A DNA stretch of 53,565 bases, from the IMG/VR virus record IMGVR_UViG_3300030463_000010; one strand, given 5' to 3'. The position numbers were made by a program, and so were the translations under genes. Of this stretch, positions 1 through 52,667 are shown one piece after another. Source of the DNA: a virus. Every line of letters begins with the position of its first letter. The stretch's first letter is position 1. Below the pieces are notes generated by a model, which saw nothing but the letters and a program-made list of their open reading frames with translations, was not told the DNA's origin and ran no database searches.

Positions 1-123
1 ATTACTGTTTCCATCTCGTCGGCGGTAAATAGTTTTCTGCTGAGGCTGTCAAGGTAAAATACCCGCAGTTCGTCGCGGCTCTTGTCCTTGTGGTGCAGTT
101 CGTAGTCATCAGCGTATTTGATA
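1..123. repeat. Terminal overlap: 1-123 is an exact copy of 53443-53565 (circular closure; unique length 53442 bp)
   Basis: Read directly: both ends read ATTACTGTTTCCATCTCGTCGG...CAGCGTATTTGATA. A minus-strand ORF stays in frame across the junction. Confidence 0.95.
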
Positions 124-281
124 TGGTGCCCATCGGCAAACACAAGAACGGAATATCCAAAATAGCCGCCAAAGTCCACAAAATAAATCTGGTGTCCTTT
201 AATCTCTGTGACCTCTATTGCCTTTGCTGCGGCCTGCGCTTCTGTCAGCGCTTCAATATCGCGGATCGTGTATTCTTTCAT
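1..281 (-). CDS. N-terminal part of a 250-aa hypothetical protein that continues across the circular junction into 52971-53442
   Basis: ATG at 281 with AGGAGGA 10 nt upstream (291-297 on the plus strand). Reads MKEYTIRDIEALTEAQ...FTADE, then in frame into METVINYQDK... at the other end of the window. Confidence 0.7.
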   Translation of the reverse strand, partial: MKEYTIRDIEALTEAQAAAKAIEVTEIKGHQIYFVDFGGYFGYSVLVFADGHHIKYADDYELHHKDKSRDELRVFYLDSLSRKLFTADEMETV

Positions 282-402
282 TTCTGTTTTCCTCCTTGTC
301 ATGGAGGGCCGCCCGTGGTATAATGGGCGTGCCCTGGTTTGGTGGTACTTGCTGGGGCTTCTCTTTGCCCTGGCCACTGTTGCGAGTAGTGGCCGGGGCT
401 TT

Positions 403-567
403 TTAATAGTCAATATATACGGTGTAATCTGTGGGGCTTGTCTTCCTGATCTTGTGTCCGCTGGCCTTGTCCAGCGCTAACCATGCGTCCCGCTCCTGTT
501 CACTCTGGTATGGCCTTCTACAATTCCATTCTTTGCGGTATTTGTAGATATATTGGATAATGCCCAT
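403..567 (-). CDS. small hypothetical protein (54 aa)
   Basis: ATG at 567 with GGAAGGG upstream. MGIIQYIYKYRKEWNCRRPYQSEQERDAWLALDKASGHKIRKTSPTDYTVYIDY. Below the 60-aa cutoff of the ORF track. Confidence 0.45.
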   Translation of the reverse strand: MGIIQYIYKYRKEWNCRRPYQSEQERDAWLALDKASGHKIRKTSPTDYTVYIDY

Positions 568-663
568 GTTTTTCCCTTCCGGTCTGTGGCCTTGCTTTCC
601 CCTGCCGGTTGTGTTATAGTGGGGGCGACATGTGGCAGGCCATGCCGCCCCGTGTTCTTTGTT

Positions 664-707
664 AGATAGCCGCTTACTTGTTCAGGGTAGGGCGGCTATC
701 TTTTTTT
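664..707 (+). terminator. intrinsic-terminator-like hairpin (15-bp stem, then T7) oriented for the plus strand
   Basis: AGATAGCCGCTTAC (664-677) pairs with GTAGGGCGGCTATCT (687-701), followed by TTTTTTT. It sits between two minus-strand genes. Confidence 0.5.
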
Positions 708-837
708 ACTGCTTGGGAATGGCTTCCCGGATAATGCGGGCCGCGTCCTGCGGGTCTTTGGCCGTGGCCTCTACCAGCTTCGCCAGGGTTTCAAGGTAAG
801 ATGCTAATTCGGTCTGGGTCATGCTATCAGTCTCCAT
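706..837 (-). CDS. small hypothetical protein (43 aa)
   Basis: ATG at 837 preceded by GGAGGTAAC. METDSMTQTELASYLETLAKLVEATAKDPQDAARIIREAIPKQ. First gene after the minus-strand promoter. Confidence 0.45.
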   Translation of the reverse strand: METDSMTQTELASYLETLAKLVEATAKDPQDAARIIREAIPKQ

Positions 838-889
838 TTCGTTACCTCCTGCCCGGTAGATTCAGCGCGGTTTCCCTTGCTGTGATTAT

Positions 890-918
890 ATAATAGCATA
901 CTTGCATTTACCTGTCAA
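890..918 (-). promoter_or_regulatory. sigma70-type promoter TTGACA-17-TATTAT driving the minus-strand island operon
   Basis: -35 at 918..913 and -10 at 895..890 on the minus strand, read directly. Confidence 0.55.
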
Positions 919-1095
919 TAAGTTAATACAAAATAATTTCAAGATTTTTTACAATTACAGGGGCGGAGGTGGGCCGGGGCCGGGGCGATGGTTAGCCAGT
1001 CAAGGCACACCGGAGGGGGATATTCGCCGGAATAATGTAGGTAGGTCAGTCCTGTCAGCACCGAAAATAGAAAAAAGGCTTGTTGCAAAAACATA

Positions 1096-1124
1096 TTGAC
1101 ATTTGCAAAAACAAATGATACAAT
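1096..1124 (+). promoter_or_regulatory. sigma70-type promoter TTGACA-17-TACAAT upstream of the recombinase/terL genes
   Basis: -35 at 1096-1101 and -10 at 1119-1124. The -35 is flanked by two TTGCAAAAACA direct repeats (1083-1093, 1103-1113). Confidence 0.6.
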
Positions 1125-1151
1125 AAGTGCAACAAGTAAGGGGTGAAAGAT

Positions 1152-1916
1152 ATGATGGAGTTCAAAAACGCCATTGGGTATATTCGGGTAAGCACGGAGG
1201 CTCAGGCCGCAGATGATAAATATGGCATTGAGGCGCAGAAGGAAAAGATACTGGCTTATGCGAACGATAATGGGTACAACATCGTCAAGTGGTTTTGCGA
1301 TGAAGAAAGCGGAACGAGTGACGAGAGGCCGGAGCTAAACAAAATACTGTATGACGAGGACATTTCTAATCCTCCGTTTGAGGCCGTGATTGCGTTCAAG
1401 AGCGACCGAGTGGCGAGGGACACCAAACTGTACTTCTACTATCTGTATGTCCTCGAAAAGCGGAACATTAAGTTGCTGAGTACGCAAGAGGTGTTCCCGG
1501 AAGGGGATTTTGCAAATATCTACCGTGCATTGATGCTATTCGTGGCGGAGCAGGAGAGAAAGAACATTGCACTCCGCACGGGAAACGGAAGGAAGATTAA
1601 GGCGGCTGCTGGAGGATATAGTGGCGGTCGTACTGCTTATGGGTATAAGGTTGATAATGGGCGGCTTGTTATCAACGAAGAAGAGCGCCCCATTGTGGAG
1701 TTTGTGTTTGCGGAACATAGGAAAGGCACACCGATGCTGACGATTGCCGACAAGCTGAATGACCTTGGCTATCGGACACGAAAGGGGACGAAGTTCCAGA
1801 ACACGAGCGTTCGGAGCATTATCAAGAATGAGCCGCTTTACCGTGGGATGTATAAGTATGGAGATATGAATTGGGTTAAGGGTGTGCATGAGCCTATTCT
1901 AAAGGAGGACGAATAA
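1152..1916 (+). CDS. serine recombinase with a truncated large-serine-recombinase layout (resolvase catalytic domain plus recombinase domain, no zinc-ribbon/coiled-coil)
   Basis: IGYIRVSTEAQ catalytic-serine motif and SDRVARD. Then GGRTAYGYKV...EERPIVEFVF...LNDLGYRTRKG...SVRSIIKNEPLYRG, ending right after GVHEPIL. ATG at 1152 is better spaced from AAGGGG than the GTG at 1143. Confidence 0.85.
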   Translation: MMEFKNAIGYIRVSTEAQAADDKYGIEAQKEKILAYANDNGYNIVKWFCDEESGTSDERPELNKILYDEDISNPPFEAVIAFKSDRVARDTKLYFYYLYVLEKRNIKLLSTQEVFPEGDFANIYRALMLFVAEQERKNIALRTGNGRKIKAAAGGYSGGRTAYGYKVDNGRLVINEEERPIVEFVFAEHRKGTPMLTIADKLNDLGYRTRKGTKFQNTSVRSIIKNEPLYRGMYKYGDMNWVKGVHEPILKEDE

Positions 1917-1992
1917 ATGACATACGGTGAGATTTTAGAAAATGCCACAGAAGAAGAACGGAGCCGGTGGTATGTAGCGGAGGCATTTAGAA

Positions 1993-3627
1993 ATGGAGAT
2001 AAAAACACTGGTAGTGAGGGCATTTCAGAGAGATTTGTCCGACCCATCTGCGCTATCTGATGCGTTTGATTCGATCAGGTTGTTGGAGCCGGAAGATTTT
2101 TCGCTGGCACACGAGCGGAACAAGGAGGTGCGGAGGATGTCTGCAAAATTTGCCGCAGAACAAAAAAGCCTCCGCATGTTCGAGCTAAACAAGCGGAGTC
2201 TGCTGTTTGATGCCCCGTATGATTTTGATGCTCATTGCAGGTACATAGAATGGAATAGGCCGAACGATAAGAGGTTTTATATTCCAAGAAGAAAGCAATT
2301 GCTTCGTGTAGCAAAATCCCTTCAAAAGCTGGCGGACGGAGATCTGGATCTGTTGGCTATCAGTTTGCCTCCTGGAGTTGGGAAAACTACATTAGCTCTG
2401 TTTTTCTTGACTTGGCTTGCTGGACGAAGCCCGGAAAAACCGATTCTTGGAGGTTCACACTCTAACGCATTTCTTCGGGGAGTATACGATGAATGTCTGC
2501 GAATTCTTGATCCGCAGGGAGAATATTTGTGGCATGATGTGTTCCCGACGGTACAGGTAGTAAAAACCAATGCACAAGATATGATGATTGACCTTGGAAC
2601 CGATAAGAAACGAGGAAAGAGGTTCGCGACACTGGAATTTAGCTCTATTGGATCTGGAAATGCTGGTAAGGTTCGAGCAGAGAACTTGCTTTATTGTGAT
2701 GACCTTGTTGACGGCCTGGAGTCTGCTCTCTCCAAGGAACGCATGGACAAGTTGTGGAATCTGTACGCAACCGATCTTAGACAGCGAAAGATTGGAGATG
2801 CCAGAGAACTCCATATTGCAACGAGGTGGTCTGTCCATGATGTTATTGGACGATTAGAGCAGATGTATGGGGAGAATGATAGAGCAGAATTTATCGTTGT
2901 ACCGGCGCTGGACGAAAACGATGAAAGCAATTTTGACTATGGAAACCATGCCGGATTTACCACAGCGTTTTACCATGAGCAACGGGATGTTATGGATGAT
3001 GCTTCTTGGCGAGCGTTATTCATGAATCAACCAATCGAGCGTGAAGGACAGCTCTACAATGAGGATGAGCTGCGCAGGTACTTTGAACTTCCTGACGGAA
3101 AACCAGATGCAGTTCTGTTTGTGTGCGATACGAAGGACAAGGGCACTGATTACTGCGTCATGCCGATTTGTTATCAGTACGGGAATGACTTTTATTGTGA
3201 AGACGTAGTATGTGACAACAGCAATCCAGAGGTTGTAGAGGCGCGGCTGGTGTCAAAACTACTTCAGCACAAGGCTCAGATGGGCCAGTTTGAAAGTAAC
3301 AGCGCTGGTGGTAAAGTAGCAGAAAAAGTTCAAAAAGAAGTGAAGGAAGCTGGCGGAATCGCAAAAATCACAACAAAATACACAACACAGGGGAAAGAGA
3401 CAAAGATCATAGTAAATTCCCCGTGGGTAAAAGAACGGGTTTTATTTAAGGACAATTCTATCATAAAGAAAGATAAGGAGTATCGCCGGATGCTAAACTT
3501 CCTATGCGGCTATACGATGGCTGGGAAAAATAAACATGACGATGTTCCTGATGCTTGGGCAATGTTTGCTGAGTATGTCCAGCAACTAGAAGGGAACAGG
3601 GTGGAGGTGTTCCGGCGCCCATTCTAA
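1993..3627 (+). CDS. terL: terminase large subunit
   Basis: 544 aa. Walker A-like LPPGVGKTT, Walker B-like LLYCDDLVD, C-terminal nuclease-type region. GGAGG 9 nt upstream. Confidence 0.9.
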   Translation: MEIKTLVVRAFQRDLSDPSALSDAFDSIRLLEPEDFSLAHERNKEVRRMSAKFAAEQKSLRMFELNKRSLLFDAPYDFDAHCRYIEWNRPNDKRFYIPRRKQLLRVAKSLQKLADGDLDLLAISLPPGVGKTTLALFFLTWLAGRSPEKPILGGSHSNAFLRGVYDECLRILDPQGEYLWHDVFPTVQVVKTNAQDMMIDLGTDKKRGKRFATLEFSSIGSGNAGKVRAENLLYCDDLVDGLESALSKERMDKLWNLYATDLRQRKIGDARELHIATRWSVHDVIGRLEQMYGENDRAEFIVVPALDENDESNFDYGNHAGFTTAFYHEQRDVMDDASWRALFMNQPIEREGQLYNEDELRRYFELPDGKPDAVLFVCDTKDKGTDYCVMPICYQYGNDFYCEDVVCDNSNPEVVEARLVSKLLQHKAQMGQFESNSAGGKVAEKVQKEVKEAGGIAKITTKYTTQGKETKIIVNSPWVKERVLFKDNSIIKKDKEYRRMLNFLCGYTMAGKNKHDDVPDAWAMFAEYVQQLEGNRVEVFRRPF

Positions 3628-3654
3628 AAACACAAAATATTGTATATAAATATA

Positions 3655-3682
3655 TTGATTTATCTATATATTGTGGTATAAT
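3655..3682 (+). promoter_or_regulatory. strong extended -10 promoter TTGATT-16-TGgTATAAT facing the non-coding RNA locus
   Basis: Read directly in the AT-rich spacer just after the terL stop (3625-3627). Confidence 0.65.
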
Positions 3683-3788
3683 ATATATGGAATAGGGTAC
3701 TTGCACTATACAATCTTGTCTTTCACCTCCTTCACACAACATATGGGGTGGTGGCGAAAACCACTGCCCCTGCTGTGTGGAACTCTAT

Positions 3789-3866
3789 GCCCTTGTAGCT
3801 CAGTAGGTAGAGCGGCCCAGGAATATGGGTGATTGAAGCGTCGCCGGTTCGAGTCCGGCCGGGGGC
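3789..3866 (+). tRNA. tRNA-like element with a non-canonical anticodon arm (6-nt loop GGAATA, 12-nt variable region)
   Basis: Acceptor GCCCTTG/CGGGGGC, D arm GCTC-AGTAGGTA-GAGC and T arm GCCGG-TTCGAGT-CCGGC are canonical. The anticodon stem GCCCA/TGGGT leaves only 6 loop nt. Confidence 0.5.
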
Positions 3867-4277
3867 TTGGCAACCCGCACCTTTCGCGGAGCCAATTTAA
3901 GCCGCCTCCTTGTGATGCCTCCCCACAATCCGGGGACAGGTAGTAACCTGGGGCAAACCGCAGGAATGCCTTTCGAGGCTGGCCCTGCAAAGCAGACCGC
4001 TCCAAAGGCCACGGAGCTGACACCCCGGAAAGACGGGGGCATGCGGAACATAGGCACCCCAAAAACGGGGAGGTCACAGCAAGCGAAGGGCACGCTGCTC
4101 TAAGTGCTAAAGCGGGGCAGGGCCGCGATGTTCCACCAGAGGCCGGGTCGCTCCCGGATGATCTGAGCGTAGCGCAATTCCTCAGAGAGAATGACAATGC
4201 CCGCTGAAAACTGCGCCAGAGTTCCGCAATCGGGGCCGATATACGGCGTGTGACAATTAAGCGGGAAGCGCACATAT

Positions 4278-4347
4278 ACGGGTGTAGCTCAATGGAGAGC
4301 GCCGGTCTCCAAAACCGGAGGTTGGGGGAACAGAGCCTTCCACCCGT
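4278..4347 (+). tRNA. tRNA-Trp(CCA)-like element with an aberrant T arm
   Basis: Acceptor ACGGGTG/CACCCGT is perfect, with D arm GCTC-AATGGA-GAGC and anticodon arm CCGGT-CTCCAAA-ACCGG. The T arm GGGGG-AACAGAG-CCTTC lacks the TTC motif. Confidence 0.55.
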
Positions 4348-4710
4348 GCCAGTGCCCTGCATGACAATGGTCTTGGTCCATATCACCTGAAAAGGCGATG
4401 GCGGCTTGCAACGCAGCGGGGCAATGATATGCCTCTCCTCGCCGCATGAGGCGGGCGGTGGCACCACGGCCCTCCCGTTTAGGGCGAAACGATATGCAGA
4501 TTGCGACGGCCTTATGGGCGAGGCGTTAATCACTGGAACGGCTTCCAGTGTCGCAAAAGCCGAAAACCATTGAGCGGTGGCGGAAAATGTAGACGCTTAC
4601 CGAGTAAGGCCATACTGGCGCCTGCGCCAGTCTCGACTGATTAGGCCATGTTAGGTGAAAATCCTCACCCGCTCAAATATGCCGCCCCGCAGTTGCGCGA
4701 GACGGGGACG

Positions 4711-4748
4711 GGAAAAGAACAGCCTGCCTTATAAAATAAAGCAGACTG
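4711..4748 (-). terminator. intrinsic terminator of the minus-strand 65-aa gene (weaker in the plus orientation)
   Basis: On the minus strand, CAGUCUGCUUU-AUUUUAU-AAGGCAGGCUG (11 bp including 2 G-U) is followed by UUCUUUUCC. Confidence 0.6.
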
Positions 4749-4763
4749 ATCTATTGTTGTTAT

Positions 4764-4961
4764 TTAAATTTCGATTTCGAGACGTTGCGCAATCTCTTCA
4801 ACGCTATACTTTTTAGATGCTTCCTCAAGAATTAACTGGATTTTTGCGGGTTTCAAAAGTGCTTCCTTTTCTGCTTGTAGTTTTTGAATTTGCGCATCAA
4901 TAGATTTTATTTTAGCCTCCGGGGAGCGGCTTCTCTTTTTAGTCACTTTGTTTTCGTCCAT
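4764..4961 (-). CDS. small coiled-coil protein (65 aa), hypothetical
   Basis: ATG with AAAGGAGGTG upstream. MDENKVTKKRSRSPEAKIKSIDAQIQKLQAEKEALL... Has its own promoter and terminator. Confidence 0.6.
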   Translation of the reverse strand: MDENKVTKKRSRSPEAKIKSIDAQIQKLQAEKEALLKPAKIQLILEEASKKYSVEEIAQRLEIEI

Positions 4962-4986
4962 AAAATCACCTCCTTTTATGTAAATT

Positions 4987-5015
4987 ATTATATTGCACTA
5001 ATAGCATAAATACAA
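4987..5015 (-). promoter_or_regulatory. sigma70-type promoter TTGTAT-17-TATAAT for the 65-aa gene
   Basis: -35 at 5015..5010 and -10 at 4992..4987 on the minus strand. Confidence 0.5.
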
Positions 5016-5042
5016 GGGGGGCTAGATGTCGATAATGGGGGT

Positions 5043-5219
5043 ATGTCAAAAGTGAAAGTGGATGTCTACTGTCCTATCTGTGCTGCTGCTGGTATCAATC
5101 ATGGCAAAGGGCGGCTTTTGATGCAGGTGGATAGCAAAACAACGGGTATAGTTTATCCATACTGCAAGGCTTGCAAGAAAAACATCAAGATTGATTTAAA
5201 TGGCGATAAAAGCGCCTGA
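5043..5219 (+). CDS. zinc-ribbon protein (58 aa), Com/cysteine-rich-KTR-like
   Basis: MSKVKVDVYCPICAAAG...GRLLMQV...YPYCKACKKNIKIDL has two CxxC pairs. GGGGG RBS. Below the ORF-track cutoff. Confidence 0.6.
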   Translation: MSKVKVDVYCPICAAAGINHGKGRLLMQVDSKTTGIVYPYCKACKKNIKIDLNGDKSA

Positions 5220-5231
5220 GAATTATAGTTT

Positions 5232-5279
5232 AGTGCCAAGTGCCAGGCCACTAGCTGGCCTCTAAGAGTGCCAAGTGCC
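5232..5279 (+). repeat. AGTGCC heptad array, site 1: AGTGCCAAGTGCC, a 6-bp hairpin, then AGTGCCAAGTGCC
   Basis: Copies at 5232-5244 and 5267-5279 flank the hairpin AGGCCA-CTAGC-TGGCCT. Lies 63 nt upstream of the portal start. Confidence 0.85.
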
Positions 5280-5341
5280 GATCAGTTACCGAGGAACCCT
5301 CGGTAGTTGGTCGGCATTTTTGCTGTTCTGGAGGTGATAAG

Positions 5342-6808
5342 GTGACGGAAAACGATACTGTTCGGGCTATATCCGAGTGGCCGGTCAATGGGCTGACTGG
5401 GCGTAGAAAAATTTACACCGCCAAAAAGCGAGTCACCCCGGAAAATGTGGTGGATGTGCTGGGAAAGGCTCTGGCTGTGCATCGAATTAACAGGGCAGAA
5501 ATGTCCTATTTGTATGACTATTACAGAGGCAAGCAGGACATCCGCCTGAAAGACAAAATCGTTCGACCGGAGATCAACAACAAGGTGATGATTAACCGGG
5601 CGAACGAAATCGTGGTATTCAAGTCTGCTTACCTTCTGGATGGCCCAATCCGTTATGTGTCCAACGGCGGAGAAGATGATATTTCTTCTAATGTGAATAC
5701 ATTGAATGAATATATGCGAGCCGAGAGCAAAGACACTCTCGACAAAGAGCTGGCCGACTGGATGCACATCTGCGGTGTTGCGGTCCGCATGGTCCTCACT
5801 GACGAAGTCGGAGAGGAAGACGGGTCCCCGGCATCCATATATACCCTTGACCCAAGAGCGGCGTTCTGCATCTACCATAGTGGTGTGGGGCAGAAAAAGG
5901 TCGCCGGGGTGCTGGAACAGGTGGACGAGGAGGGACAGCCCTACTTCTGTGTGTACACCCCTGAATGGTATTTCGAGGTGCAGAACGGCCAGATCACAAA
6001 GCAGGAAGCCCGTACAATTCCATATATTCCGATTGTTGAGTATGTGAACAACGATGCCCGCATGGGTGCGTTTGAGCCGGTCATCCCCATCCTGAACGCA
6101 ATCAACATGATTGAGTCAAATAGATTGGACAGCATTCAGGATTTCGTCAACGCTTTTGATGTGTTCCAAAACTGCGAGCTAGAGGACGGCCAATATAAGG
6201 AACTGGCAAAGGGCGGAATGGCAATTACGATCAAGAGCGTTCAGCCCGGCATGGAGGCTAAGGTCTACCGCATTGCCTCTGAGCTGAACCAGACCAACAC
6301 ACAGACCATTGTGGACGACCTAGAGGACGCATACCTGACCATCTGCGGGATGCCGAACCGGAACGGTGGTTCATCCACCAGCGATACCGGACAGGCGGTC
6401 ATTTACCGAGACGGCTGGTCCGCCGCTGAGAGCCGGGCCAAGGACACGGAAAAGACATGGGAACGGTCGGAGCGGGAGTTCCTGCGGCTGGTGCTGTATA
6501 TCTGCCGGGAGACTGGCGATTTAGGCTTGCAGCTATCCGACATTAAGCCGGAGTTCACTCGGAAGAACCTGTCCAACATCCAGTCCAAGGCGCAAGTGCT
6601 GGCGGAAATGCTGAATAACAGCAAGATTCACCCGAAGCTGGCGTTCCAGTACAGCGGGCTATTTAGCGACCCAGAGGACGCATACAGGATCAGTATGGAA
6701 TATGCAGAAGAACAGCAACGCAAGATGGAGCGGAGTTTGAGAGATGAACTGGCGGTGGAACGGGCCAACGGGAATAATCCGCAGGACGGCGGCGGTGATG
6801 CTGAATGA
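5342..6808 (+). CDS. portal protein (SPP1 gp6-like)
   Basis: 488 aa. GTG start with GGAGGTGA RBS. Size, position and sequence are typical of SPP1-type portals. Confidence 0.85.
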   Translation: MTENDTVRAISEWPVNGLTGRRKIYTAKKRVTPENVVDVLGKALAVHRINRAEMSYLYDYYRGKQDIRLKDKIVRPEINNKVMINRANEIVVFKSAYLLDGPIRYVSNGGEDDISSNVNTLNEYMRAESKDTLDKELADWMHICGVAVRMVLTDEVGEEDGSPASIYTLDPRAAFCIYHSGVGQKKVAGVLEQVDEEGQPYFCVYTPEWYFEVQNGQITKQEARTIPYIPIVEYVNNDARMGAFEPVIPILNAINMIESNRLDSIQDFVNAFDVFQNCELEDGQYKELAKGGMAITIKSVQPGMEAKVYRIASELNQTNTQTIVDDLEDAYLTICGMPNRNGGSSTSDTGQAVIYRDGWSAAESRAKDTEKTWERSEREFLRLVLYICRETGDLGLQLSDIKPEFTRKNLSNIQSKAQVLAEMLNNSKIHPKLAFQYSGLFSDPEDAYRISMEYAEEQQRKMERSLRDELAVERANGNNPQDGGGDAE

Positions 6809-8712: not shown

Positions 8713-9783
8713 ATGGATTTGAGAGAAGTTTTTACCCCTGCTGCGATTGCGGCCAACTGGACTGAAGTTGCCTCCAATCAGATTCCTTACCTGGGTGCTA
8801 CCCTGTTCCCTGCCCGCAAGAAGGCCGGTCTCGACTTATCCTGGCTAAAAGGTTCCCGTGGTCTGCCTGTGTCCCTGATGCCCTCCGCTTTTGATGCAAA
8901 GGCAACCTTCCGGGACCGCATTGGGTTTGAAAAGTTGGAAACCGAAATGCCGTTTTTCCGGGAGGGTTACAAAATCAAGGAGAAGGACCGGCAGGAGATG
9001 CTTCGCGTGCAGGAGTCCAGCGACCCCTATGCCGCCGAGGTAATCGCCCGCGTGTTCGATGACACCCGTGATCTGATCGACGGTGCGAATGTTGTTCCTG
9101 AGCGGATGATCATGCAACTGCTTTTCCCTGAGAGCGGCAATGTGGGCATTGCGATTAAAGCAAACGGGATGAACTACACCTACAATTATGATACGGACGG
9201 TTCCTGGAAGACCTCTAACTACACCGCACTGACTAATACAGCCACTTGGGACAAGCCCTCTACGGCTGACCCCTTTGCAGCGTTCAAGACGGTTAAGGAC
9301 GCTATCCGATCCAAGACTGGTACTGAGCTGACGGTTGCTATTATGAATTCCTACACCTTCAATCTGCTGGCCAAGACGGATGCAGTGAAGAACCGTTACC
9401 TGACTACCAACGGCTTGTCTCTGGGCTACCTGACTGATACTGAGGTAAAGGCGATTGTGGAGTCTACTTCCGGCCTGCGTATTGCCATTTACGACAAGCA
9501 GTATCGGGATGAGAGCAAAGTTGCACATCCGTTTGTGCCCAATGGCTATGTGTGTCTGATTCCTGACGGTGCGCTCGGTGGCACATGGTATGGCACTACG
9601 CCCGAGGAGGCTGATCTGCGCGGAGCTTCCAGCGCAGAGGTTTCCATCGTGAATACAGGTGTTGCGATTACCCGTATTCTCCAGGAGCATCCCGTGAACA
9701 TCAACACCTTTGCGTCTGAAATCGTCCTGCCCTCCTTCGAGCGCATGGACGAGGTGGCTGTGCTCAACGTCCTGGGGGAATAA
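8713..9783 (+). CDS. major capsid protein (lambda gpE-like family)
   Basis: 356 aa. N-terminus MDLREVFTPAAIAANW...YLGATLFPARKK..LDLSWLKG is typical of the family. Confidence 0.85.
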   Translation: MDLREVFTPAAIAANWTEVASNQIPYLGATLFPARKKAGLDLSWLKGSRGLPVSLMPSAFDAKATFRDRIGFEKLETEMPFFREGYKIKEKDRQEMLRVQESSDPYAAEVIARVFDDTRDLIDGANVVPERMIMQLLFPESGNVGIAIKANGMNYTYNYDTDGSWKTSNYTALTNTATWDKPSTADPFAAFKTVKDAIRSKTGTELTVAIMNSYTFNLLAKTDAVKNRYLTTNGLSLGYLTDTEVKAIVESTSGLRIAIYDKQYRDESKVAHPFVPNGYVCLIPDGALGGTWYGTTPEEADLRGASSAEVSIVNTGVAITRILQEHPVNINTFASEIVLPSFERMDEVAVLNVLGE

Positions 9784-11966: not shown

Positions 11967-11993
11967 AGTGCCAAGTGCCTCGTGCCAAGTGCC
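11967..11993 (+). repeat. AGTGCC heptad array, site 2: AGTGCCAAGTGCC-TC-GTGCCAAGTGCC
   Basis: Read directly. Ends 31 nt upstream of the major tail ATG, followed by the hairpin CCTAAAA-C-TTTTAGG that includes the RBS. Confidence 0.85.
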
Positions 11994-12023
11994 TCCCTAA
12001 AAACTTTTAGGAGGTACTATTTT

Positions 12024-13348: not shown

Positions 13349-13750
13349 TTACTGAGCTTTTTTCAATTCTTCAATTTGCCGGGTATGTATAGCCACCGTC
13401 TTTTCAAGATCATCCACGCGATCTTCCTTGACACTCCCCACAGCTAAAGCAAGGGGTTTTACGCCACACATAATAATGTCCATAGCTTCTTGCGGGATCA
13501 ACTTCTTTTCAATATCGTCAAGGCGTTCTGAAAGAGCTTGGAATTTGGGGTCAAAGTAAGATTCCATCATGACCATCATGCGCCGTTCGGATTCTCTAAC
13601 CTTAGAATCCATGGTGGTTATCATGCGTTGTTCGGAGTCTTTGATTTTAGAATCCACGACAACGCCGACCTCGCTGATAATATCTTCCTTTTGCTGAGAC
13701 ATCAATCTTGCAAGCATTTCAATGTCCTGTTCATCTAACATCCCGCTCAC
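13349..13750 (-). CDS. coiled-coil hypothetical protein (133 aa), moron
   Basis: Opposite strand inside the tail module. Internal repeat DSKIKDSEQRM / DSKVRESERRM. Consensus promoter upstream. Confidence 0.7.
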   Translation of the reverse strand: MSGMLDEQDIEMLARLMSQQKEDIISEVGVVVDSKIKDSEQRMITTMDSKVRESERRMMVMMESYFDPKFQALSERLDDIEKKLIPQEAMDIIMCGVKPLALAVGSVKEDRVDDLEKTVAIHTRQIEELKKAQ

Positions 13751-13762
13751 CTCTTGGTAGCT

Positions 13763-13791
13763 ATTATACGGGATGACCGGATAGCTGTCAA
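13763..13791 (-). promoter_or_regulatory. perfect consensus sigma70 promoter TTGACA-17-TATAAT
   Basis: -35 at 13791..13786 and -10 at 13768..13763 on the minus strand. Confidence 0.7.
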
Positions 13792-13924
13792 GAAACTGTA
13801 CCTTGAAAACTTAATAGAGATAGCGGAGATTTTGATTGAAAATCTACCATTTGAGAGGTTACGCATGGCGGGATATACCCCCGCCGCCTCTCAAAGATAA
13901 ACTAAAAGTAGATTCAAAAATCAT

Positions 13925-14599
13925 ATGAAATCAACAGAAAGGATTGATAGAATGTTAGTGGAAATTGCGAAATTCGGAAAAGAAGAACGTGCTGTTTGCA
14001 CAAGTCTCGATATTGCCGAAACATTTGGCAAGGAACACAAAAATGTTCTGCGCGATGTCGAAAATCTGGGGTGTTCCGAAGAGTTTAATCGGCTCAATTT
14101 TGAGCCGATCTCCTACACCGATTCTATGAACCGAATGCAGAAAGCCTATACTATGACACGAGATGGATTTACTCTTCTTGTTATGGGATATACTGGAGAC
14201 CTGGCTATGAAGTTCAAAGAAGCTTATATTAAGCAATTCAACGCTATGGAAGCCGCCCTGCAAGGAAAGCGAATTGAGCGTGAGAAGGGAATTGCTGTTC
14301 GCCAGGCGTTGACAAAAGCTTTGCAGCAATCCAGTGAAAATGATCGGATGCACGGACACGCCTATTCCAATTACACCAACTGTATTTATAAAGTCCTGTT
14401 TGGGAAAAACGCCGCGCAGCTTCGATCTGATTTTGGAATTGGTAAAACAGACAATTTACGAGACTGTTTCAGCAAAGAGGAGTTGAGAGAGGTTCAGTCC
14501 ATGGAGTGTTTAGTAAGCGGACTCGTTGATTGCGGCTGGGGTTATGAAAAAGTTAAATCCTTTATTGCGCAGACGAATGTAAAGATGTTGTCAGCGTAA
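13925..14599 (+). CDS. Rha-family regulator / antirepressor (Rha N-domain plus ORF6C-like C-domain)
   Basis: 224 aa. TSLDIAETFGKEHKNVLRDVENL...YTMTRDGFTLLVMGYTG (Rha), then C-terminal HGHAYSNYTNCIYKVLFG... Confidence 0.75.
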   Translation: MKSTERIDRMLVEIAKFGKEERAVCTSLDIAETFGKEHKNVLRDVENLGCSEEFNRLNFEPISYTDSMNRMQKAYTMTRDGFTLLVMGYTGDLAMKFKEAYIKQFNAMEAALQGKRIEREKGIAVRQALTKALQQSSENDRMHGHAYSNYTNCIYKVLFGKNAAQLRSDFGIGKTDNLRDCFSKEELREVQSMECLVSGLVDCGWGYEKVKSFIAQTNVKMLSA

Positions 14600-14667
14600 A
14601 TAACAAGGTATTTCCTCCTTGCCTCCTCCCTCAGATTGTGGTAATATTTGGGGGAGGAGGGCTGAAA

Positions 14668-15546
14668 ATGAAGAAGCTAATTTCGTTTATTTTGGCTGGA
14701 TTTATGATGGCTAGGGTGGTTGGCTGTGAAGACGGAAACGCAAAAACCACCCAAAACGATGACTTAACTCAAGAAATCCAACACCCGTCTTCTTCTGATG
14801 TAGAATATGAATTTTTGCACAACGGAATTTTTCGAATCAATGTTGATTCTATTGATACCACGGAGGATGGATATGATTTAACGATTTCGTTTGTTGGAGA
14901 GGAAGAAAGGCAGGCAGACCCCAATATATGTGCATCTGATATTGATAGGCTACTTGGAACTATTCTCGAAGGCAATCAATCGGTATATGATAGTCTTGAA
15001 AATGTTATTTTTAATTGCCCGTCTGATGGAAAGAACTATCAAGCGTCTCTTTCAATTCAATCGTACCAGAGTGGCCATGACATATCTTTTTTGGAAACGA
15101 TTGGTGGCTCATCTGATGTAATTGTCGTTACGGCGGCCGATATTGAGGCAACTTTAGCTGAGGCACAACAGGAATTAGATGAGTTATTAGAACACCCGAA
15201 AGAATTAACCATAGGAAGAACGTTATACGACGACGATAAAATATCTATCGTGTATAAGGGGACAACTGAATATGAAATTATACATGCCCCCGACAACTTA
15301 GATGTACCAAAAGCTGCGATTATTTTTTCTGTTATTAACAAGACAGGAAAAAGCTTGACATTAACATTTTCAGATTTTCGTGTGAATGGTATTAACAGCG
15401 GATATGTTACAAGTCATTCCATATCATCGAATGAAAACAATTCTGTTGAAGTAAGGTTTGATGATTTGCCGAAACTTTTGGAGAATATACACTCTAGTGG
15501 GTCGATCATGTTTGATGATTATTCCACCTTTGATCTTAAATTCTAA
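14668..15546 (+). CDS. lipoprotein (292 aa), possible superinfection-exclusion/moron product
   Basis: MKKLISFILAGFMMARVVGC has a signal peptide plus lipobox. GGGGAGGAGG RBS. AT-richer than the flanks. Confidence 0.75.
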   Translation: MKKLISFILAGFMMARVVGCEDGNAKTTQNDDLTQEIQHPSSSDVEYEFLHNGIFRINVDSIDTTEDGYDLTISFVGEEERQADPNICASDIDRLLGTILEGNQSVYDSLENVIFNCPSDGKNYQASLSIQSYQSGHDISFLETIGGSSDVIVVTAADIEATLAEAQQELDELLEHPKELTIGRTLYDDDKISIVYKGTTEYEIIHAPDNLDVPKAAIIFSVINKTGKSLTLTFSDFRVNGINSGYVTSHSISSNENNSVEVRFDDLPKLLENIHSSGSIMFDDYSTFDLKF

Positions 15547-15560
15547 GGCTATATTAACCA

Positions 15561-15597
15561 ACCCTCCGCTCACTTTTGAGCGGAGGGTAAATTTTTT
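15561..15597 (+). terminator. intrinsic terminator
   Basis: ACCCTCCGCTC-ACTTTT-GAGCGGAGGGT followed by AAATTTTTT. Confidence 0.8.
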
Positions 15598-15790
15598 ATG
15601 GAAACCTCTTGACTTTTTGTGTACATAAAAATAGGCTGCAACGCCAACGAGCTGAAAAGCGAGGAATACGGAGCGAGATTTAACGACAAAGCGAAAAGCA
15701 GTAACAAAGAGGTTCAGAGTTTTCGATACTTTGAAAGTGCGATTCCTGTCATTCGAGATATCCTGAATCAACATACTGTATAAAGCAGAG

Positions 15791-15830
15791 TCCCCGCTAT
15801 CTCTATTAAGTAGGTAGCGGGGAATTTTTA
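15791..15830 (+). terminator. intrinsic-terminator-like hairpin
   Basis: TCCCCGCTA (15791-15799) pairs with TAGCGGGGA (15815-15823), then ATTTTTA. Confidence 0.5.
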
Positions 15831-15847
15831 TTGGTGGAGGCAAAACA

Positions 15848-16084
15848 ATGGCAACAATTGAAATTAAAACAAAAGGGCCAAGTGGGAAAATATTTATTAA
15901 TGGTAAAGAAGTGCCAGATGTGCGTGGATATTTGATTTCACATAAGGCTGGGAGACTTCCGGTATTTAGGATGGACATCATTGCATCTGATATAACGTTT
16001 AATGGAAGTGAATTTTTGCCAGAGCTGCCGGAAGTGTTCAAAGATTTCTATGAACAGAAAAAATCGAAACGTAAAGATTTTTAG
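15848..16084 (+). CDS. hypothetical protein (78 aa); paralogue-like to 38995-39159
   Basis: GGTGGAGG RBS. ...KIFINGKEVPDVRGYLISHKAGRLPVFRMDIIASDITFNG. Confidence 0.6.
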   Translation: MATIEIKTKGPSGKIFINGKEVPDVRGYLISHKAGRLPVFRMDIIASDITFNGSEFLPELPEVFKDFYEQKKSKRKDF

Positions 16085-16095: not shown

Positions 16096-16123
16096 AGTGC
16101 CAAGTGCCACAGTGCCGAGTGCC
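16096..16123 (+). repeat. AGTGCC heptad array, site 3: AGTGCCAAGTGCC-AC-AGTGCCGAGTGCC
   Basis: Read directly. Ends 24 nt upstream of the tape-measure ATG. Confidence 0.85.
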
Positions 16124-16146
16124 GAACATTGAAAGGTGGTGGCAAC

Positions 16147-30150: not shown

Positions 30151-30396
30151 ATGAGCGCAAGAGTGAAATTACCACCACCGCTAGATAAACTCTTGCGCTC
30201 TCAAATGGAGACGGCTATTCGGGAAGCTAACCTGGGAAACGATGACACGGACATTGCTAAACGCTACTTGATTGATCAAATCCCGCAGATTGAGATTGCC
30301 GCGGAGTTTGGATGGGAGCGCTCTACGATCAGCCGCAGGATTTCAAGAATCCTTCTAAAAGTAGAAAACGCCGCAGATAAATTAAAATATTTTTGA
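30151..30396 (+). CDS. small sigma-70 region-4-like HTH protein (81 aa), candidate transcription regulator
   Basis: IAKRYLIDQIPQIEIAAEFGWERSTISRRISRILLKV. Confidence 0.6.
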   Translation: MSARVKLPPPLDKLLRSQMETAIREANLGNDDTDIAKRYLIDQIPQIEIAAEFGWERSTISRRISRILLKVENAADKLKYF

Positions 30397-35241: not shown

Positions 35242-36582
35242 TCACACATTTAAGGAATATTCTATGTGCCTATCAGGGTATATTTTGATTTCTTTGACAA
35301 TAATTCTCCAAAATTCTCGTTTTTCTTCGCGGTTGAGTCCGTCGTAAGATTCTTTCCAGTTTTCGGTTAACACCCTATCAATACTCTCGAAGTCTTGCTT
35401 TTGCTCAGGGAGTGCTGCTTTCTCCAAATCACTGATTTTTGCAAGCAATGCTTCACGGTCTGTCTTTAATTCTTCTAGTGTGATGATATCATTCAAATAT
35501 AAATCCTTCAGTTTGTTTAACTTTGACTTTGCAGCAGAGATTTCCGCACGTGACCTTTTGTTGATTTCCGCATTTTTGAGAGCGGAAAAGTTGGCCTTGT
35601 ATTCGTGAAATTTGTTGGCTACTGTCGCAAGAAGATACTCTTCAATTTTCCTTTCACCAAGATTAACGCGATTTTGGCATCCATTCTGCTTTGTATAGTG
35701 TCCGTTGCAATTGTAGAACACATACGTCTGCTTTGTGTTAATACGAGCACCCATCCTGTTGCCGCACTCCGGGCAAACCACTAATCCGGAAAACAGATAG
35801 GTACGATTATTCTTTGCCTTTCGGACAACCTTCCTCCGCATAGCTTGAATTTGTTCATGATCTTCTTTAGTGATATAGGCAGGACACATTCCGTCCATAT
35901 TGTAATATTTCCCATAATATGTAGTGCTGCGCAGCATCTTATCAATAAGATGGTATCTCATTAAAACACCATATTTTTCTCTGATAAATTCGGAAGTTTT
36001 AGAAATGGAACCGGAGGCTAAATACTTCTTAAAGAAATCGTTAACAAGAGCCTCTTTGGATTCGTCTTTTTTGAATGATTTTCCTTCAATTTTATAACCA
36101 AAAGGTATATTCCCGGTAAGAGGCTCCAACCGCGCCCGCTTTCCCTCAAAAACGAATTTGATACGCTCACTGGTCCGGTCTGCTTCATCTTGGGCAACGG
36201 ACAACATGATATTTACTTTCAGCCGCCCGGATGCGGTTGTCGTCTCATAATCCTCTTGTGTCGCCTGCCAAGATACACCATATTGATCTAGGATTTCCTG
36301 AACAGCATAGTAGTTCCCCACATTTCTAAACCATCGGTCCAGTTTTATAAACAATATCAGATCAATTTTTCCAACCCTGCAATCATCCAGAAGTTTTAGG
36401 AGTGCAGGGCGTTTCTTATATGGTTTTCTGGCGGAGATGCCAGCATCTTCATAGATGCCGACAATCTTCATTCCATGGGATTTTGAAAATTGGGTCAGAC
36501 TATTTTTTTGGTCTTCCAGAGACAAGCCATGCCGGGCTTGTTCTTCTGTACTAACCCTTATATATAATGCAGCTCGTTGCAT
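35242..36582 (-). CDS. int: large serine recombinase (integrase)
   Basis: 446 aa from the ATG at 36582 (AGGAGGTGGAG RBS). AALYIRVSTEEQ..., recombinase domain, zinc ribbon CPECGNRM...YNCNGHY, coiled coil. Confidence 0.9.
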   Translation of the reverse strand: MQRAALYIRVSTEEQARHGLSLEDQKNSLTQFSKSHGMKIVGIYEDAGISARKPYKKRPALLKLLDDCRVGKIDLILFIKLDRWFRNVGNYYAVQEILDQYGVSWQATQEDYETTTASGRLKVNIMLSVAQDEADRTSERIKFVFEGKRARLEPLTGNIPFGYKIEGKSFKKDESKEALVNDFFKKYLASGSISKTSEFIREKYGVLMRYHLIDKMLRSTTYYGKYYNMDGMCPAYITKEDHEQIQAMRRKVVRKAKNNRTYLFSGLVVCPECGNRMGARINTKQTYVFYNCNGHYTKQNGCQNRVNLGERKIEEYLLATVANKFHEYKANFSALKNAEINKRSRAEISAAKSKLNKLKDLYLNDIITLEELKTDREALLAKISDLEKAALPEQKQDFESIDRVLTENWKESYDGLNREEKREFWRIIVKEIKIYPDRHIEYSLNV

Positions 36583-36824
36583 AGCTCCACCTCCTAAGAT
36601 CACGCCGCCAGGTGATTCCTGACGGCGGCTTTTCACTAGAATGAAAACCTATCGTAAAAAGTAAAATTGTGGTATAAAAATAAAGACCACTAGATATAGG
36701 TCAATACAAAATATAAATGGAAAAAATTGTGAAAATCTGCTGATTGCCTTATATTATCCTCGGTGCTATGATATTATCAAATCACTAGAACAAATGTTCT
36801 TGAACGAGGAGGGGCAACTGGAAT

Positions 36825-44012: not shown

Positions 44013-44349
44013 AACGATCAACAGCAAGCGCAAGGGAAAAGAGGGAGAGCTGCGTCTGGTCCACTTCCTGCGAGAGCAGGGCTATGAGTGCCGCAGAACA
44101 GCGCAGTACTGCGGAAAAACCGGAGAGGCAGCGGACGTGATCGGGCTTCCGGGCCTCCATATCGAGTGCAAGGCCGTTGAACGGCTGAATGTTCGGGAGG
44201 CATTGAAGCAAGCTGTCAGGGACGCGGTTGCCTCTTTGATTCCCGTGGTATTTCACAGGCACAGCCGGGAGGAGTGGCTTGTAACGCTCCGGGCAGAGGA
44301 TTTCATGACCATTTACCGGGAGTGGGAGGCTGGACGACATGAAAAGTAA
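44005..44349 (+). CDS. Holliday-junction-resolvase-like PD-(D/E)XK nuclease
   Basis: 114 aa. RKGKEGELRLVHFLREQGY...ADVIGLPGLHIECK. Confidence 0.6.
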   Translation: MTKTINSKRKGKEGELRLVHFLREQGYECRRTAQYCGKTGEAADVIGLPGLHIECKAVERLNVREALKQAVRDAVASLIPVVFHRHSREEWLVTLRAEDFMTIYREWEAGRHEK

Positions 44350-44668
44350 AACGCTTCTGCGCGTGGTGGAAATGGCGCGGAGCGGATGCACAGACAGAGA
44401 GATCGGGAAAGCGGTGGGCGCTGCCCCATCGACGGTCAGCTACCACAGGAAGAAAGCCGGAATCGAGAGGGCCCGCGGTCAAACATACCACACTCTGTAC
44501 ACGCTCTATGACCGGGATGGGCAGTACCTGTTTGAAGGCAGCGTGAAGGAATGCGCAAATTTCCTGGAAATTCAGGAGCACACGGTCCGGGAATATCTGT
44601 CCAGATTCCGCGCCGGAAGGAAAACGCCTGTTGAGATTTACGCAGAGCCAGTCAGGAGGATGAGATGA
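44339..44668 (+). CDS. HTH DNA-binding protein (109 aa)
   Basis: GCTDREIGKAVGAAPSTVSYHRKK. Confidence 0.6.
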   Translation: MKSKTLLRVVEMARSGCTDREIGKAVGAAPSTVSYHRKKAGIERARGQTYHTLYTLYDRDGQYLFEGSVKECANFLEIQEHTVREYLSRFRAGRKTPVEIYAEPVRRMR

Positions 44669-51120: not shown

Positions 51121-51435
51121 ATGGAGGAACGAACATTGGACTTAACAAAATATGAAATGGAAACTATCTACAACTACAATCAGGAAGATCCTCTTGCCTC
51201 CTGCTACACGATGGACCGTGCCCTGATCCGCCGCTTAGATGTACTTGCCGAAAAACACAAAGAAATTACTTTACTTAGAAGTGGTGAAGGAATGAGGGAA
51301 TATACTTTCCCCAAGAAGTGGATTAAAGTCCGCGCTCCAAAGGAACTATCGGAAGAACAGCGGGAAAACATGGCAAAGAGAGCAAGAGAGAGGTTTGGGT
51401 TTGCGAAGGAAGGTGACAACTCTGAACAAGAATGA
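51121..51435 (+). CDS. hypothetical protein (104 aa) immediately upstream of terS (the usual position of late activators)
   Basis: First ATG with plausible context in the track ORF 51001-51435. No HTH recognised. Confidence 0.5.
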   Translation: MEERTLDLTKYEMETIYNYNQEDPLASCYTMDRALIRRLDVLAEKHKEITLLRSGEGMREYTFPKKWIKVRAPKELSEEQRENMAKRARERFGFAKEGDNSEQE

Positions 51436-51982: not shown

Positions 51983-51983
51983 A

Positions 51984-52088
51984 CGACTATTAGCGACTAT
52001 TTCAGGAACTTTCTGGAAGTCAAACAACTATAAAACGACTTTTTGGAGGCTACGACTATGGATGAAACTCTGGAAGACCAGCGACTAT
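51984..52088 (+). repeat. CGACTAT repeat cluster (4 exact plus 2 near copies): candidate pac/TerS recognition region
   Basis: Exact copies at 51984, 51994, 52053 and 52082. Variants are CAACTAT at 52025 and CGACTTT at 52036. Confidence 0.55.
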
Positions 52089-52246
52089 GCCCGTTAATGG
52101 ATTTGGCCCGTGTGGTGGCTCTGGGCGCTTCCTGCGGGCGGGCCTCCGTCGAGTTGGAGGCCATCCAATGCAAAGGCGGCTCCTGCGCCTGGTGGGACGC
52201 TGACAAAAACTGTTGCGCCGTCCTCTCCCTGGCCCGGAACAAATGA
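52058..52246 (+). CDS. small Cys-rich protein (62 aa)
   Basis: GGAGG RBS. CPLMD...C...CKGGSCAWWD...CCAV. Confidence 0.55.
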   Translation: MDETLEDQRLCPLMDLARVVALGASCGRASVELEAIQCKGGSCAWWDADKNCCAVLSLARNK

Positions 52247-52251
52247 CAATG

Positions 52252-52290
52252 CCCCGGCTTGCTCCTGACGGAGTGGGCCGGGGTTGCTTT
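52252..52290 (+). terminator. terminator-like hairpin
   Basis: CCCCGGC (52252-52258) pairs with GCCGGGG (52277-52283), then TTGCTTT. Confidence 0.4.
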
Positions 52291-52382
52291 ATGCCTTGTG
52301 TGGCGCTGCGCGGGCCTCTGTACGGCGTTTTGTGGCGTGAGAATATAGGGACACTGCTAGAAGAAAAAATGCCGTGTAGAGC

Positions 52383-52415
52383 CTGTAAATGCTCTTTACA
52401 GCGGTTTTTCTTTTT
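52383..52415 (+). terminator. intrinsic terminator
   Basis: CTGTAAA-TGCTC-TTTACAG, then CGG and TTTTTCTTTTT. Confidence 0.55.
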
Positions 52416-52523
52416 GGGGCTTGTTCCGCTCTGCTGAACATGGGCGCAAAAATGACGCCTGCGGGCCACTGGAGGGCCTACAAGCGGCGGGGCGATGGCG
52501 TGGAGTATATAGGAGGCATGGGC

Positions 52524-52557
52524 AAGAGAAAACCCGCCCCAGAAAGCCCAGGACGGG
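52524..52557 (-). terminator. terminator of the minus-strand island operon
   Basis: On the minus strand, CCCGUCC...GGGCGGG (including G-U) is followed by UUUUCUCU. Confidence 0.45.
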
Positions 52558-52569
52558 CACTGGCGGTAT

Positions 52570-52635
52570 TCAAGATTTTTTCGCCGTCTCCCAGATAATC
52601 ATAATCGGGAGCAGCAGGATAAACAGAATAATCAA
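52570..52635 (-). CDS. 21-aa hydrophobic peptide (LIILFILLLPIMIIWETAKKS), speculative
   Basis: TTG start 8 nt after GGAGGTG. Last ORF before the minus-strand terminator. Confidence 0.3.
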   Translation of the reverse strand: MIILFILLLPIMIIWETAKKS

Positions 52636-52667
52636 GCGGGGGTCACCTCCATTCTCCGGCGGGCGGG

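Follow-up and report, generated by a model that had tools for sequence, protein, structure and literature searches.

Com of phage Mu is a 62-residue protein with a CCCC zinc finger, and its gene lies just upstream of mom (PMC6483171). Com binds 5′-CC(N)2-3GAG-3′ (GAGNNCC(N)2-3GAGNNCC by systematic evolution of ligands by exponential enrichment, SELEX) beside a translation-inhibition hairpin and opens this hairpin (PMC6483171). Here we describe a locus with a comparable layout in IMG/VR record IMGVR_UViG_3300030463_000010, a viral DNA stretch of 53,565 nucleotides (the window). The leaders of its portal (site 1), major tail (site 2) and tape-measure (site 3) genes carry tandem GUGCC repeats, and a gene for a 55-residue zinc-ribbon protein stands directly before the first array. 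Repeats followed by a hairpin in fixed register, covariation at the RNA level, conserved positions and co-occurrence with the zinc-ribbon gene characterise the window and its relatives.

The likeness to Com and mom has several sides. In both systems a CCCC zinc-binding protein of about 60 residues is encoded directly upstream of a regulated gene in the same operon, and an inhibitory hairpin that masks translation signals follows the RNA site directly on its 3′ side. The zinc-ribbon gene ends 12 nt before the site 1 array. At sites 2 and 3, as in the TerL leaders of relatives, the hairpin encloses the Shine-Dalgarno (SD) sequence. The motif is again bipartite and repeated, with junctions of the general form CC-N2-3-GNG, namely CC-AA-GUG and CC-NNN-GUG here and CC-CA-GAG and CC-UUU-GAG in a divergent phage. 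However, Com has no detectable sequence homology to the zinc-ribbon family. Three to four targets per genome stand here before virion genes, whereas Com serves a DNA-modification gene. Most of the present hairpins are intrinsic terminators with U-tracts, and the repeats appear single-stranded and not in a hairpin loop. Mu infects enterobacteria, whereas the host here is a gut bacterium of the Clostridia. The resemblance appears to be one of mode of working and not of family membership.

The logic of an RNA-binding protein that competes with a terminator or SD hairpin is already known. With BglG, SacY and LicT at the RAT element, with HutP and, as a mirror case, with TRAP, the protein binds RNA that shares sequence with the 5′ part of a terminator, and binding excludes folding. 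HutP and TRAP are oligomeric proteins that read short tandem repeats of UAG or GAG triplets. The present repeats are instead pentamers with a period of 7–8 nt, have no antiterminator helix, and are phage-encoded and spread along one operon. None of the ten window proteins scanned has a CAT/PRD, HutP, TRAP or ANTAR domain. The N-nut and Q-qut systems of lambda and the put sites of HK022 are similar in that late genes lie behind terminators overcome by a phage-specified element, but here the modules stand before several genes and overlap each terminator. Structures like boxB or put, and homologues of N or Q, were not seen. The stoperators of cluster A mycobacteriophages are also short, asymmetric, intergenic and oriented with transcription; they are repressor sites in DNA, many per genome and without RNA structure, whereas the present locus has three sites and covariation.

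The repeat motif, the protein family and the distribution over several sites within a virion operon are not known from earlier work, and the literature yielded the GUGCC repeat only as an unrelated primer sequence. To our knowledge, virtually no work exists on how temperate phages of gut Clostridia control their late genes.

The GUGCC arrays and the hairpins at their last repeat

The + strand of the 53.6-kb window has six exact matches to the doublet GTGCCRAGTGCC (at 5233, 5268, 11968, 11982, 16097 and 16112), and the − strand has none. The chance expectation is 0.03 ± 0.17 per sequence, and none of 100 dinucleotide-preserving shuffles reached six. The hexamer AGTGCC by itself is only mildly enriched (35 against 24 expected), so the signal lies in the arrangement of the copies. 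Allowing up to two mismatches added no convincing match in the window, and a looser regular expression on both strands added no array. A sequence-only reading of the window had described three intergenic four-copy arrays on the coding strand upstream of portal, major tail and tape measure, with no further full unit; the exact-pattern counts, the assignments by PHROGs and both searches agree with it. The exhaustive pattern search that it had proposed also showed the arrays recurring at the same junctions in related phages.

The site 1 array (5232–5279, + strand) has GUGCC copies at 5233–37, 5240–44, 5268–72 and 5275–79. Its two doublets are separated by the hairpin AGGCCA-CUAGC-UGGCCU (5245–5261) and a single-stranded tail CUAAGA (5262–5267). 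The site 2 array (11967–11993, +) has copies at 11968–72, 11975–79, 11982–86 and 11989–93 and a spacer of only 2 nt, UC. This doublet-UC-doublet architecture, AGUGCCAAGUGCC-UC-GUGCCAAGUGCC as RNA, recurs in relatives. The site 3 array (16096–16123, +) has copies at 16097–101, 16104–08, 16112–16 and 16119–23 with the spacer AC(A), and relatives have arrays at this place too. The array end precedes the first base of the start codon by 63 nt (GTG 5342), 31 nt (ATG 12024) and 24 nt (ATG 16147), and PHROGs identifies the three downstream genes as portal, major tail protein and tape measure.

The sequence-only reading had overlooked that the last repeat of site 1 is the base of a terminator-like hairpin and that the site 2 hairpin holds an SD. 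The hairpin of site 1 (5275–5317, the element reaching 5322, +) has 20 bp, with the fourth GUGCC as its 5′ base and GGCAU as its 3′ base, followed by UUUUU. It is found by the terminator scan, and folded alone it has a free energy (dG) of −31.7 kcal/mol and a z-score of −7.66. The portal SD GGAGGUG (5330–5336) and the GTG start (5342) lie 3′ of it. The site 2 hairpin, AGUGCCUCCCUAAAA...UUUUAGGAGGUACU (11988–12023, +), has a 5′ arm that begins with the fourth copy and a 3′ arm that holds the SD AGGAGG (12009–12014); its dG is −15.4 kcal/mol (z −4.87), and UAUUUU and then ATG 12024 follow. Site 3 has a weak hairpin, UGCC...GGCA (16120–16144, region to 16149, +), with the SD AGGUGG (16134–16139) in its loop and the ATG at 16147. 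A GC-containing stem-loop followed by a U-tract, the mark of an intrinsic terminator, is present at site 1 and absent at site 3. The tape-measure leaders of relatives have a GUGCCA...UGGCAC stem that ends 1–3 nt before the AUG. The window has GGCAA at the position of UGGCAC, thus its own stem is weakened. Rfam 15 at the gathering score gave two tRNA matches and nothing else over the whole window, and across 1–5400, site 1 included, no match was found at E ≤ 0.1.

An exact-pattern scan of a viral contig collection found at least 118 contig stretches with arrays, and in all of them the array points the same way with respect to the genes that follow it. These related loci, designated by L numbers, are mostly fragments of 2–20 kb around the arrays, and the lineages are not independent. 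The downstream genes encode TerL (homologous to window 1993–3627), portal, major tail and tape measure, and occasionally other proteins inserted there. The near-universal layout is [GUGCC-N2-GUGCC]-spacer-[GUGCC-N2-GUGCC], a hairpin starting at the last copy, a U-run and the start codon. The hairpins close with GGCAC, GGCAU or GGCGC; the U-run is usual, and the SD is often inside. A collection of 50,697 phage records has no DNA or protein match to the region or to the zinc-ribbon protein, and its closest portal relatives (MT835537, MT836094 and Clostridium phage Maintenon) have neither the zinc-ribbon gene nor the arrays. Among the matches listed from a genome-collection scan, one is of phage type, L220 from Agathobaculum. 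Heptamer tandem repeats (AAGTGCC)n occur in many unrelated phyla (L119–L238; carriers include Longimicrobium, Phycisphaerae, Acidobacteriota, Muribaculaceae, Verrucomicrobiota and Paenibacillus). They often run into an inverted array and have other heptamer arrays on their flanks. They look like a separate, microsatellite-like phenomenon.

The window has no TerL-leader module; a serine recombinase gene (1143–1916) lies directly upstream of its TerL gene (1993–3627). A small serine recombinase with Resolvase and Recombinase domains adjoins the terminase genes in several lineages (also L321 5636–6223, L407 4047–4763, L408 4590–5165 and L110 1389–2213), and the TerL-leader array is missing where it immediately precedes TerL, as in the window and L321. 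A second, large serine recombinase is encoded in the window at 35242–36636 (−). Some relatives have a degenerate array, GUGCCAAGUGCUUAAUUGCCAAGUGCC, with a terminator before a DNA-methyltransferase-like gene (MKLHCADCM...) upstream of TerS (L013, − strand, about 1604; L111 692; L113 3461; L107 about 100–210). This array is preceded by a canonical TTGCAT-17-TATAAT promoter, and its place ahead of a methyltransferase-like gene parallels the control of DNA modification by Mu com-mom.

A compressed GTGCCAGTGCC at 4346, noted in the sequence-only reading, falls outside the system. Its first GUGCCA is the acceptor end of a tRNA-like gene (GU, the discriminator G and CCA), and its second GTGCC is absent from the same gene in all 13 related loci that carry it. 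We therefore reject it as an array and regard it as a tRNA acceptor/CCA end joined to a window-specific chance copy. The gene is a tRNA-Trp(CCA)-like gene (4278–4348) in an island between TerL and the zinc-ribbon gene, with an encoded CCA and a non-canonical T-loop. It scores 53.9 bits with Rfam, receives no ARAGORN call and is conserved in at least 13 related loci. A second tRNA-like gene of 79 nt (3789–3867) in this island is called 'tRNA-???' with an odd anticodon. GUGCCA equals the 3′ end of the phage tRNA-Trp-like gene, and GUGCCAG equals the universally conserved 16S rRNA segment at positions 515–521 (515F primer site, 530-loop helix). The repeat may mimic a tRNA or rRNA site, but a match of 6–7 nt could be chance.

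Evidence that the element acts as RNA

The stems of the portal leaders of relatives have at least seven unrelated interiors, and pairing with the last repeat is kept in them. A single hairpin with dG ≤ −10 kcal/mol and at least 5 T in the next 8 nt was required. With its anchor set 0 to 2 nt ahead of the last repeat, 74 of 95 distinct sites had such a hairpin; with the anchor at +4 nt the count was 11/95 and at −4 nt 21/95. The closing pairs are GUGCC with GGCAC (48), GGCAU (11), GGCGC (9) or GGUAC (4), and GUGCU with AGCAC (2), the last of these a compensatory change in the repeat itself.

Covariation was counted on an ungapped alignment of the outer nine pairs of 33 distinct terminators. Of all cells 97.6% were paired, against 76.5% in shuffles, a percentage inflated by the use of energy-picked, repeat-anchored hairpins. 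The double-change counts are not similarly inflated: 58 such cells were found, against 17.7 ± 3.7 in shuffles. None of 500 shuffles reached the observed covariation score, and control registers in which the pairing was slid gave 34–54% paired.

The spacer between the doublets is either 2–3 nt or 17–29 nt long. All 21 distinct long spacers are hairpins that start 0–1 nt after copy 2, with at least nine different stems, followed by a tail of 5–7 nt (CUAACA, CGAACA, CGAAGC or CUAAGA). Counted by stem class, 11 of 11 have the hairpin at the fixed position, against 6% of shuffles. Insertion of a helix keeps the doublets adjacent in RNA and places them two turns apart in DNA; thus the spacer behaves as RNA. 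Since stem interiors differ between lineages with pairing kept, and long spacers are always hairpins, the element works as RNA and is not an activator site in DNA.

The sequence-only reading had first suggested DNA sites for a late transcriptional activator, with an RNA-level element in antitermination or translation as its alternative. The promoter room is lacking, the spacers fold into hairpins and the last repeat covaries with the downstream GGCAC, and so the first proposal fails; the alternative fits the fixed hairpin register, the covariation and the spacer hairpins. Upstream of the arrays no shared −35 or −10 was found; the sequence there is no more than A/U-rich (A at −1 in 66 of 83). 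At sites 2 and 3 the SD and the start codon lie 16–31 nt after the array, leaving no room for a promoter and leader. We reject an activator or promoter reading on this geometry and the RNA covariation. Direct repeats in DNA, whether for a late activator such as an Ogr/Delta-like zinc finger or for a stoperator-like roadblock repressor, are as a class highly improbable. In their favour, the arrays are intergenic and confined to one strand, a gene for a small zinc-binding protein is close by, and 4 of 57 members of the family of this protein match Ogr_Delta weakly (best E 0.014). Yet the repeat period of 7–8 nt is out of step with the DNA helical repeat, insertions of 17–29 nt between doublets are tolerated only as hairpins, and three sites per genome compare with roughly 24–30 stoperators in mycobacteriophage L5.

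A partner RNA was also considered. No GGCAC doublet occurs anywhere on the + strand of the window, and an antisense partner was rejected, as no complementary trans RNA is evident there. Because neither an alternative antiterminator helix nor a complementary GGCAC-rich RNA is encoded, a protein would be the simplest effector.

The zinc-ribbon gene beside the arrays

The zinc-ribbon gene (5052–5219, +) encodes 55 residues (MKVDVYCPICAAAGINHGKGRLLMQVDSKTTGIVYPYCKACKKNIKIDLNGDKSA) with a CxxC-27-CxxC arrangement, a net basic charge and a conserved YPYCKxCKKN. From its stop codon it is 12 nt to the A of the first AGUGCC and 13 nt to the first GUGCC copy. Site 1 had earlier been placed exactly at the edge of an inserted island, a placement that must be corrected, for this conserved gene stands between the island and the array. 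It is located between TerL and portal in every array-bearing lineage examined, encodes 50–58 residues across the family, and its stop codon precedes the portal-leader array by 0–75 nt in all lineages. Homologues were found in 49 of the first related loci, more than for portal. A profile search yielded at least 125 clusters of zinc-ribbon-like proteins of 46–94 residues without a Pfam domain. Their annotation is at most 'cysteine-rich protein [Caudoviricetes]', and the source names include Anaeromassilibacillus, Ruminococcus and Eubacterium; a prophage in Anaeromassilibacillus sp. SJQ-1 encodes one member, P0014. Across 57 homologues C7, C10 and C38 are invariant and C41 is at least 90% conserved. 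The AlphaFold model has a zinc-ribbon-like beta fold, with a mean predicted local distance difference test score of 88.

BFVD returned only family members and generic small zinc-ribbons, and neither the window protein nor the 57 family members match the Com family of Pfam. A comparable described family is Pfam PF14205 Cys_rich_KTR, small CxxC...CxxC proteins of Firmicutes with similar size and zinc-ribbon layout. It gives sub-threshold matches in 26 of 57 family members (best E 3.9e-4), but no member scores significantly and the window protein has no match at all. Titles and abstracts in the literature give no evident function for Cys_rich_KTR.

Gene and arrays occur together. The GUGCC doublet was found on the same strand in 78 of 79 viral loci retrieved with the zinc-ribbon protein, and it is degenerate in the 79th. 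The sister lineage was sampled through the MT835537 portal, which shares about 51% identity with the window portal. Its 80 loci have 0/80 zinc-ribbon genes and 0/80 GUGCC doublets, and its TerL stop abuts the portal start. Clostridium phage Maintenon has an unrelated cysteine-rich open reading frame (ORF) of 46 residues between TerL and portal (L320 5799–5965), then a short terminator-like hairpin, GCAC-UAUAU-GUGC with UUUUUU, and no GUGCC array. The pair may be a positional analogue of the zinc-ribbon/array module.

The layout of the array follows the protein subfamily. CPxCAAAGI proteins go with (GUGCC-N2-GUGCC) ×2, and CPxC[EA]S[KR]G[FY]...VPVCR proteins (B-type) with a single doublet, GUGCC-N3-GUGCC. 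The latter layout is present at 11 of 11 sites, before TerL, portal, a tail gene and tape measure, in three phages (L324/L325, L406 and L409). The most divergent protein, P0118, whose second knuckle is CKCH, goes with AGAGCC-C-AGAGCC-UUU-GAGCC-AA-GUGCC before the portal terminator. Such correlations are consistent with co-evolution of the protein and its presumed RNA site. The portal-leader doublet of B-type phages is contained in the 3′-terminal part of the zinc-ribbon ORF and encodes ...VPVCR... there (L324 10136–10200; L406 about 9135–9200; L409 7136–7200). The 5′ arm and loop of the terminator are within this ORF, and its stop codon is in the 3′ arm. As the ORF overlaps both doublet and 5′ arm, translation of the regulator gene could itself open the portal-leader terminator.

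The same cis logic might be served by another repeat-binding factor, an early or middle phage protein or a host RNA-binding protein, while the zinc-ribbon protein has a different role such as packaging. The related loci cover only about 4–10 kb around the arrays, so that regulators conserved elsewhere in these genomes are possible. It is awkward for a regulator to be encoded behind the terminator that it targets, and small sigma-region-4-like proteins are encoded upstream of TerS in some relatives (L408) and in the window (30151–30396). On the other hand, in the regions examined the zinc-ribbon protein is the sole small non-structural protein common to all array-bearing lineages, down to the window and the most distant phages. 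It is lost with the arrays in the sister lineage, and its subfamilies track the array layout. Three candidate regulators put forward in the sequence-only reading fared poorly within these partial genomes. The proteins at 30151–30396 and 44339–44668 have no homologue in any related locus examined, and the one at 51121–51435 has homologues in 9 close relatives only, none in distant lineages. We consider another factor unlikely.

A proposed late-gene switch and its difficulties

The account that we rate best overall, at an even chance, is that GUGCC modules in the virion transcript, each a terminator or SD hairpin, are opened by the zinc-ribbon protein. We infer that a protein binds the repeats, that this protein is the zinc-ribbon protein and that its effect is activating. 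A module would consist of two to four single-stranded GUGCC repeats followed by a hairpin with the last repeat as its 5′ base. By default the hairpin would form. It would act as an intrinsic terminator in the TerL, portal and most major-tail leaders, and/or mask the SD or start codon in the TerL, major-tail and tape-measure leaders. For activation, a trans factor, most likely the zinc-ribbon protein encoded between TerL and portal (5052–5219 in the window), would bind the repeats, probably at the CC-N2-3-GUG junctions, and keep the last copy single-stranded. The bottom pairs beside the U-tract would be blocked from closing, RNA polymerase would read through and the ribosome site would be exposed. 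These bottom pairs of the terminator stem count most for intrinsic termination; thus termination should be lost, and the SD freed, once the last GUGCC is kept from pairing. The zinc-ribbon gene of relatives is downstream of the TerL-leader module, which would make the virion-gene switch self-reinforcing.

A more specific proposal, for which the chance seems just short of even, is that the zinc-ribbon proteins are a new family of RNA-binding proteins of about 50 residues, similar to Com and Cys_rich_KTR proteins at the level of fold only and cooperative on tandem GUGCC, that form a multi-site late switch in a widespread clade of human-gut Oscillospirales phages. Protein and layout (N2 ×4, N3 ×2 and GAGCC) would have co-evolved.

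Several points weigh against the opening of the hairpins by the zinc-ribbon protein. The protein finds nothing at threshold in Pfam, NCBIfam or PHROGs, and no significant match in a PDB sequence search or with Foldseek against PDB. Alignment of the family profile with Mu Com by hhalign gave a probability of 48% and placed its first CxxC on the second of Com. The hairpin of site 3 is marginal (dG −7.9 kcal/mol, z −1.45) and not significant alone, and the inflated pairing percentage belongs here as well. Since gene and array co-occur in one phage clade and each layout is a clade, the independent evolutionary events are few, and synteny alone could be the source of the adjacency of gene and array. 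The regulator lies behind its own first target terminator, which calls for leaky read-through with positive feedback or for an extra trigger. Local antitermination alone cannot explain how polymerase reaches the tape measure, as the terminators at 15561–15588 and 15791–15830 have no arrays. The concern of the sequence-only reading about read-through of the island terminators therefore stands, and a bidirectional-looking terminator at 4720–4748 likewise lacks an array.

All three of these terminators interrupt the virion operon and must be passed, which favours arrays that are nut- or put-like loading sites for processive antitermination past adjacent, downstream and island terminators. The second island comes after the site 2 array. 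Some relatives have a canonical sigma-70 promoter 10–16 nt before the first array, and this order of promoter, array and terminator, like that of lambda PR′-tR′, leaves room for a processive variant. However, one or two loading sites would do, whereas a module stands before each of three to four genes. The last repeat is always within the terminator stem, which points to direct local competition, and tape-measure modules have no U-run and only mask the SD or start codon. Loading sites of this kind are quite unlikely.

The hairpins might also be constitutive terminators or mRNA-stabilising structures that set the ratios of virion proteins, with the repeats as an endonuclease processing signal, a ribosome standby site or a conserved linker that promotes the exchange of modules and the insertion of morons. 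Both the window and its relatives have variable islands immediately ahead of array modules, the arrays are 26–47 nt of near-identical sequence in otherwise diverged phages, and A/U-rich unstructured sequence flanks them. Yet a strong terminator directly before the essential portal and TerL genes, its stem holding the SD, would do harm unless it could be relieved. The last repeat overlaps the stem base precisely and the spacers keep a fixed geometry, both of which speak for a regulated structural switch, and the layout shifts in step with the protein subfamily. A constitutive role is decidedly unlikely.

Other features of the window adjoin these genes. A low-GC island (0.38–0.44; 13349–16084) lies between the tail-chaperone genes and the tape-measure leader, with a strong consensus promoter on the − strand (13791–13763, 12/12 match) and two strong + strand terminators. 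Relatives have other variable genes in the slot just upstream of the tape-measure array. About 2.7 kb from TerS to the recombinase and TerL (51983–53565 and 1–1142) contain no convincing ORF. Spurious ORFs of this region match 5–15 related loci, so it is conserved at the nucleotide level. It may be a large non-coding RNA or decayed genes; no Rfam match was found at E ≤ 0.1.

Compact and with clear boundaries, the module turns up in hundreds of contigs of uncultivated gut phages and in prophages. If the switch is as proposed, it would bring a new RNA-binding protein family together with a new RNA motif, and would assign a role to the tiny 'cysteine-rich' ORFs that are common in phages. As a tool for Firmicutes, a repeat unit of 13 nt and a 55-residue protein would form an orthogonal terminator switch of very small size. 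For the phages themselves, it would be a late-gene switch that combines antitermination with translational activation, and their virion operons would be gated at several internal points and not once at the start.

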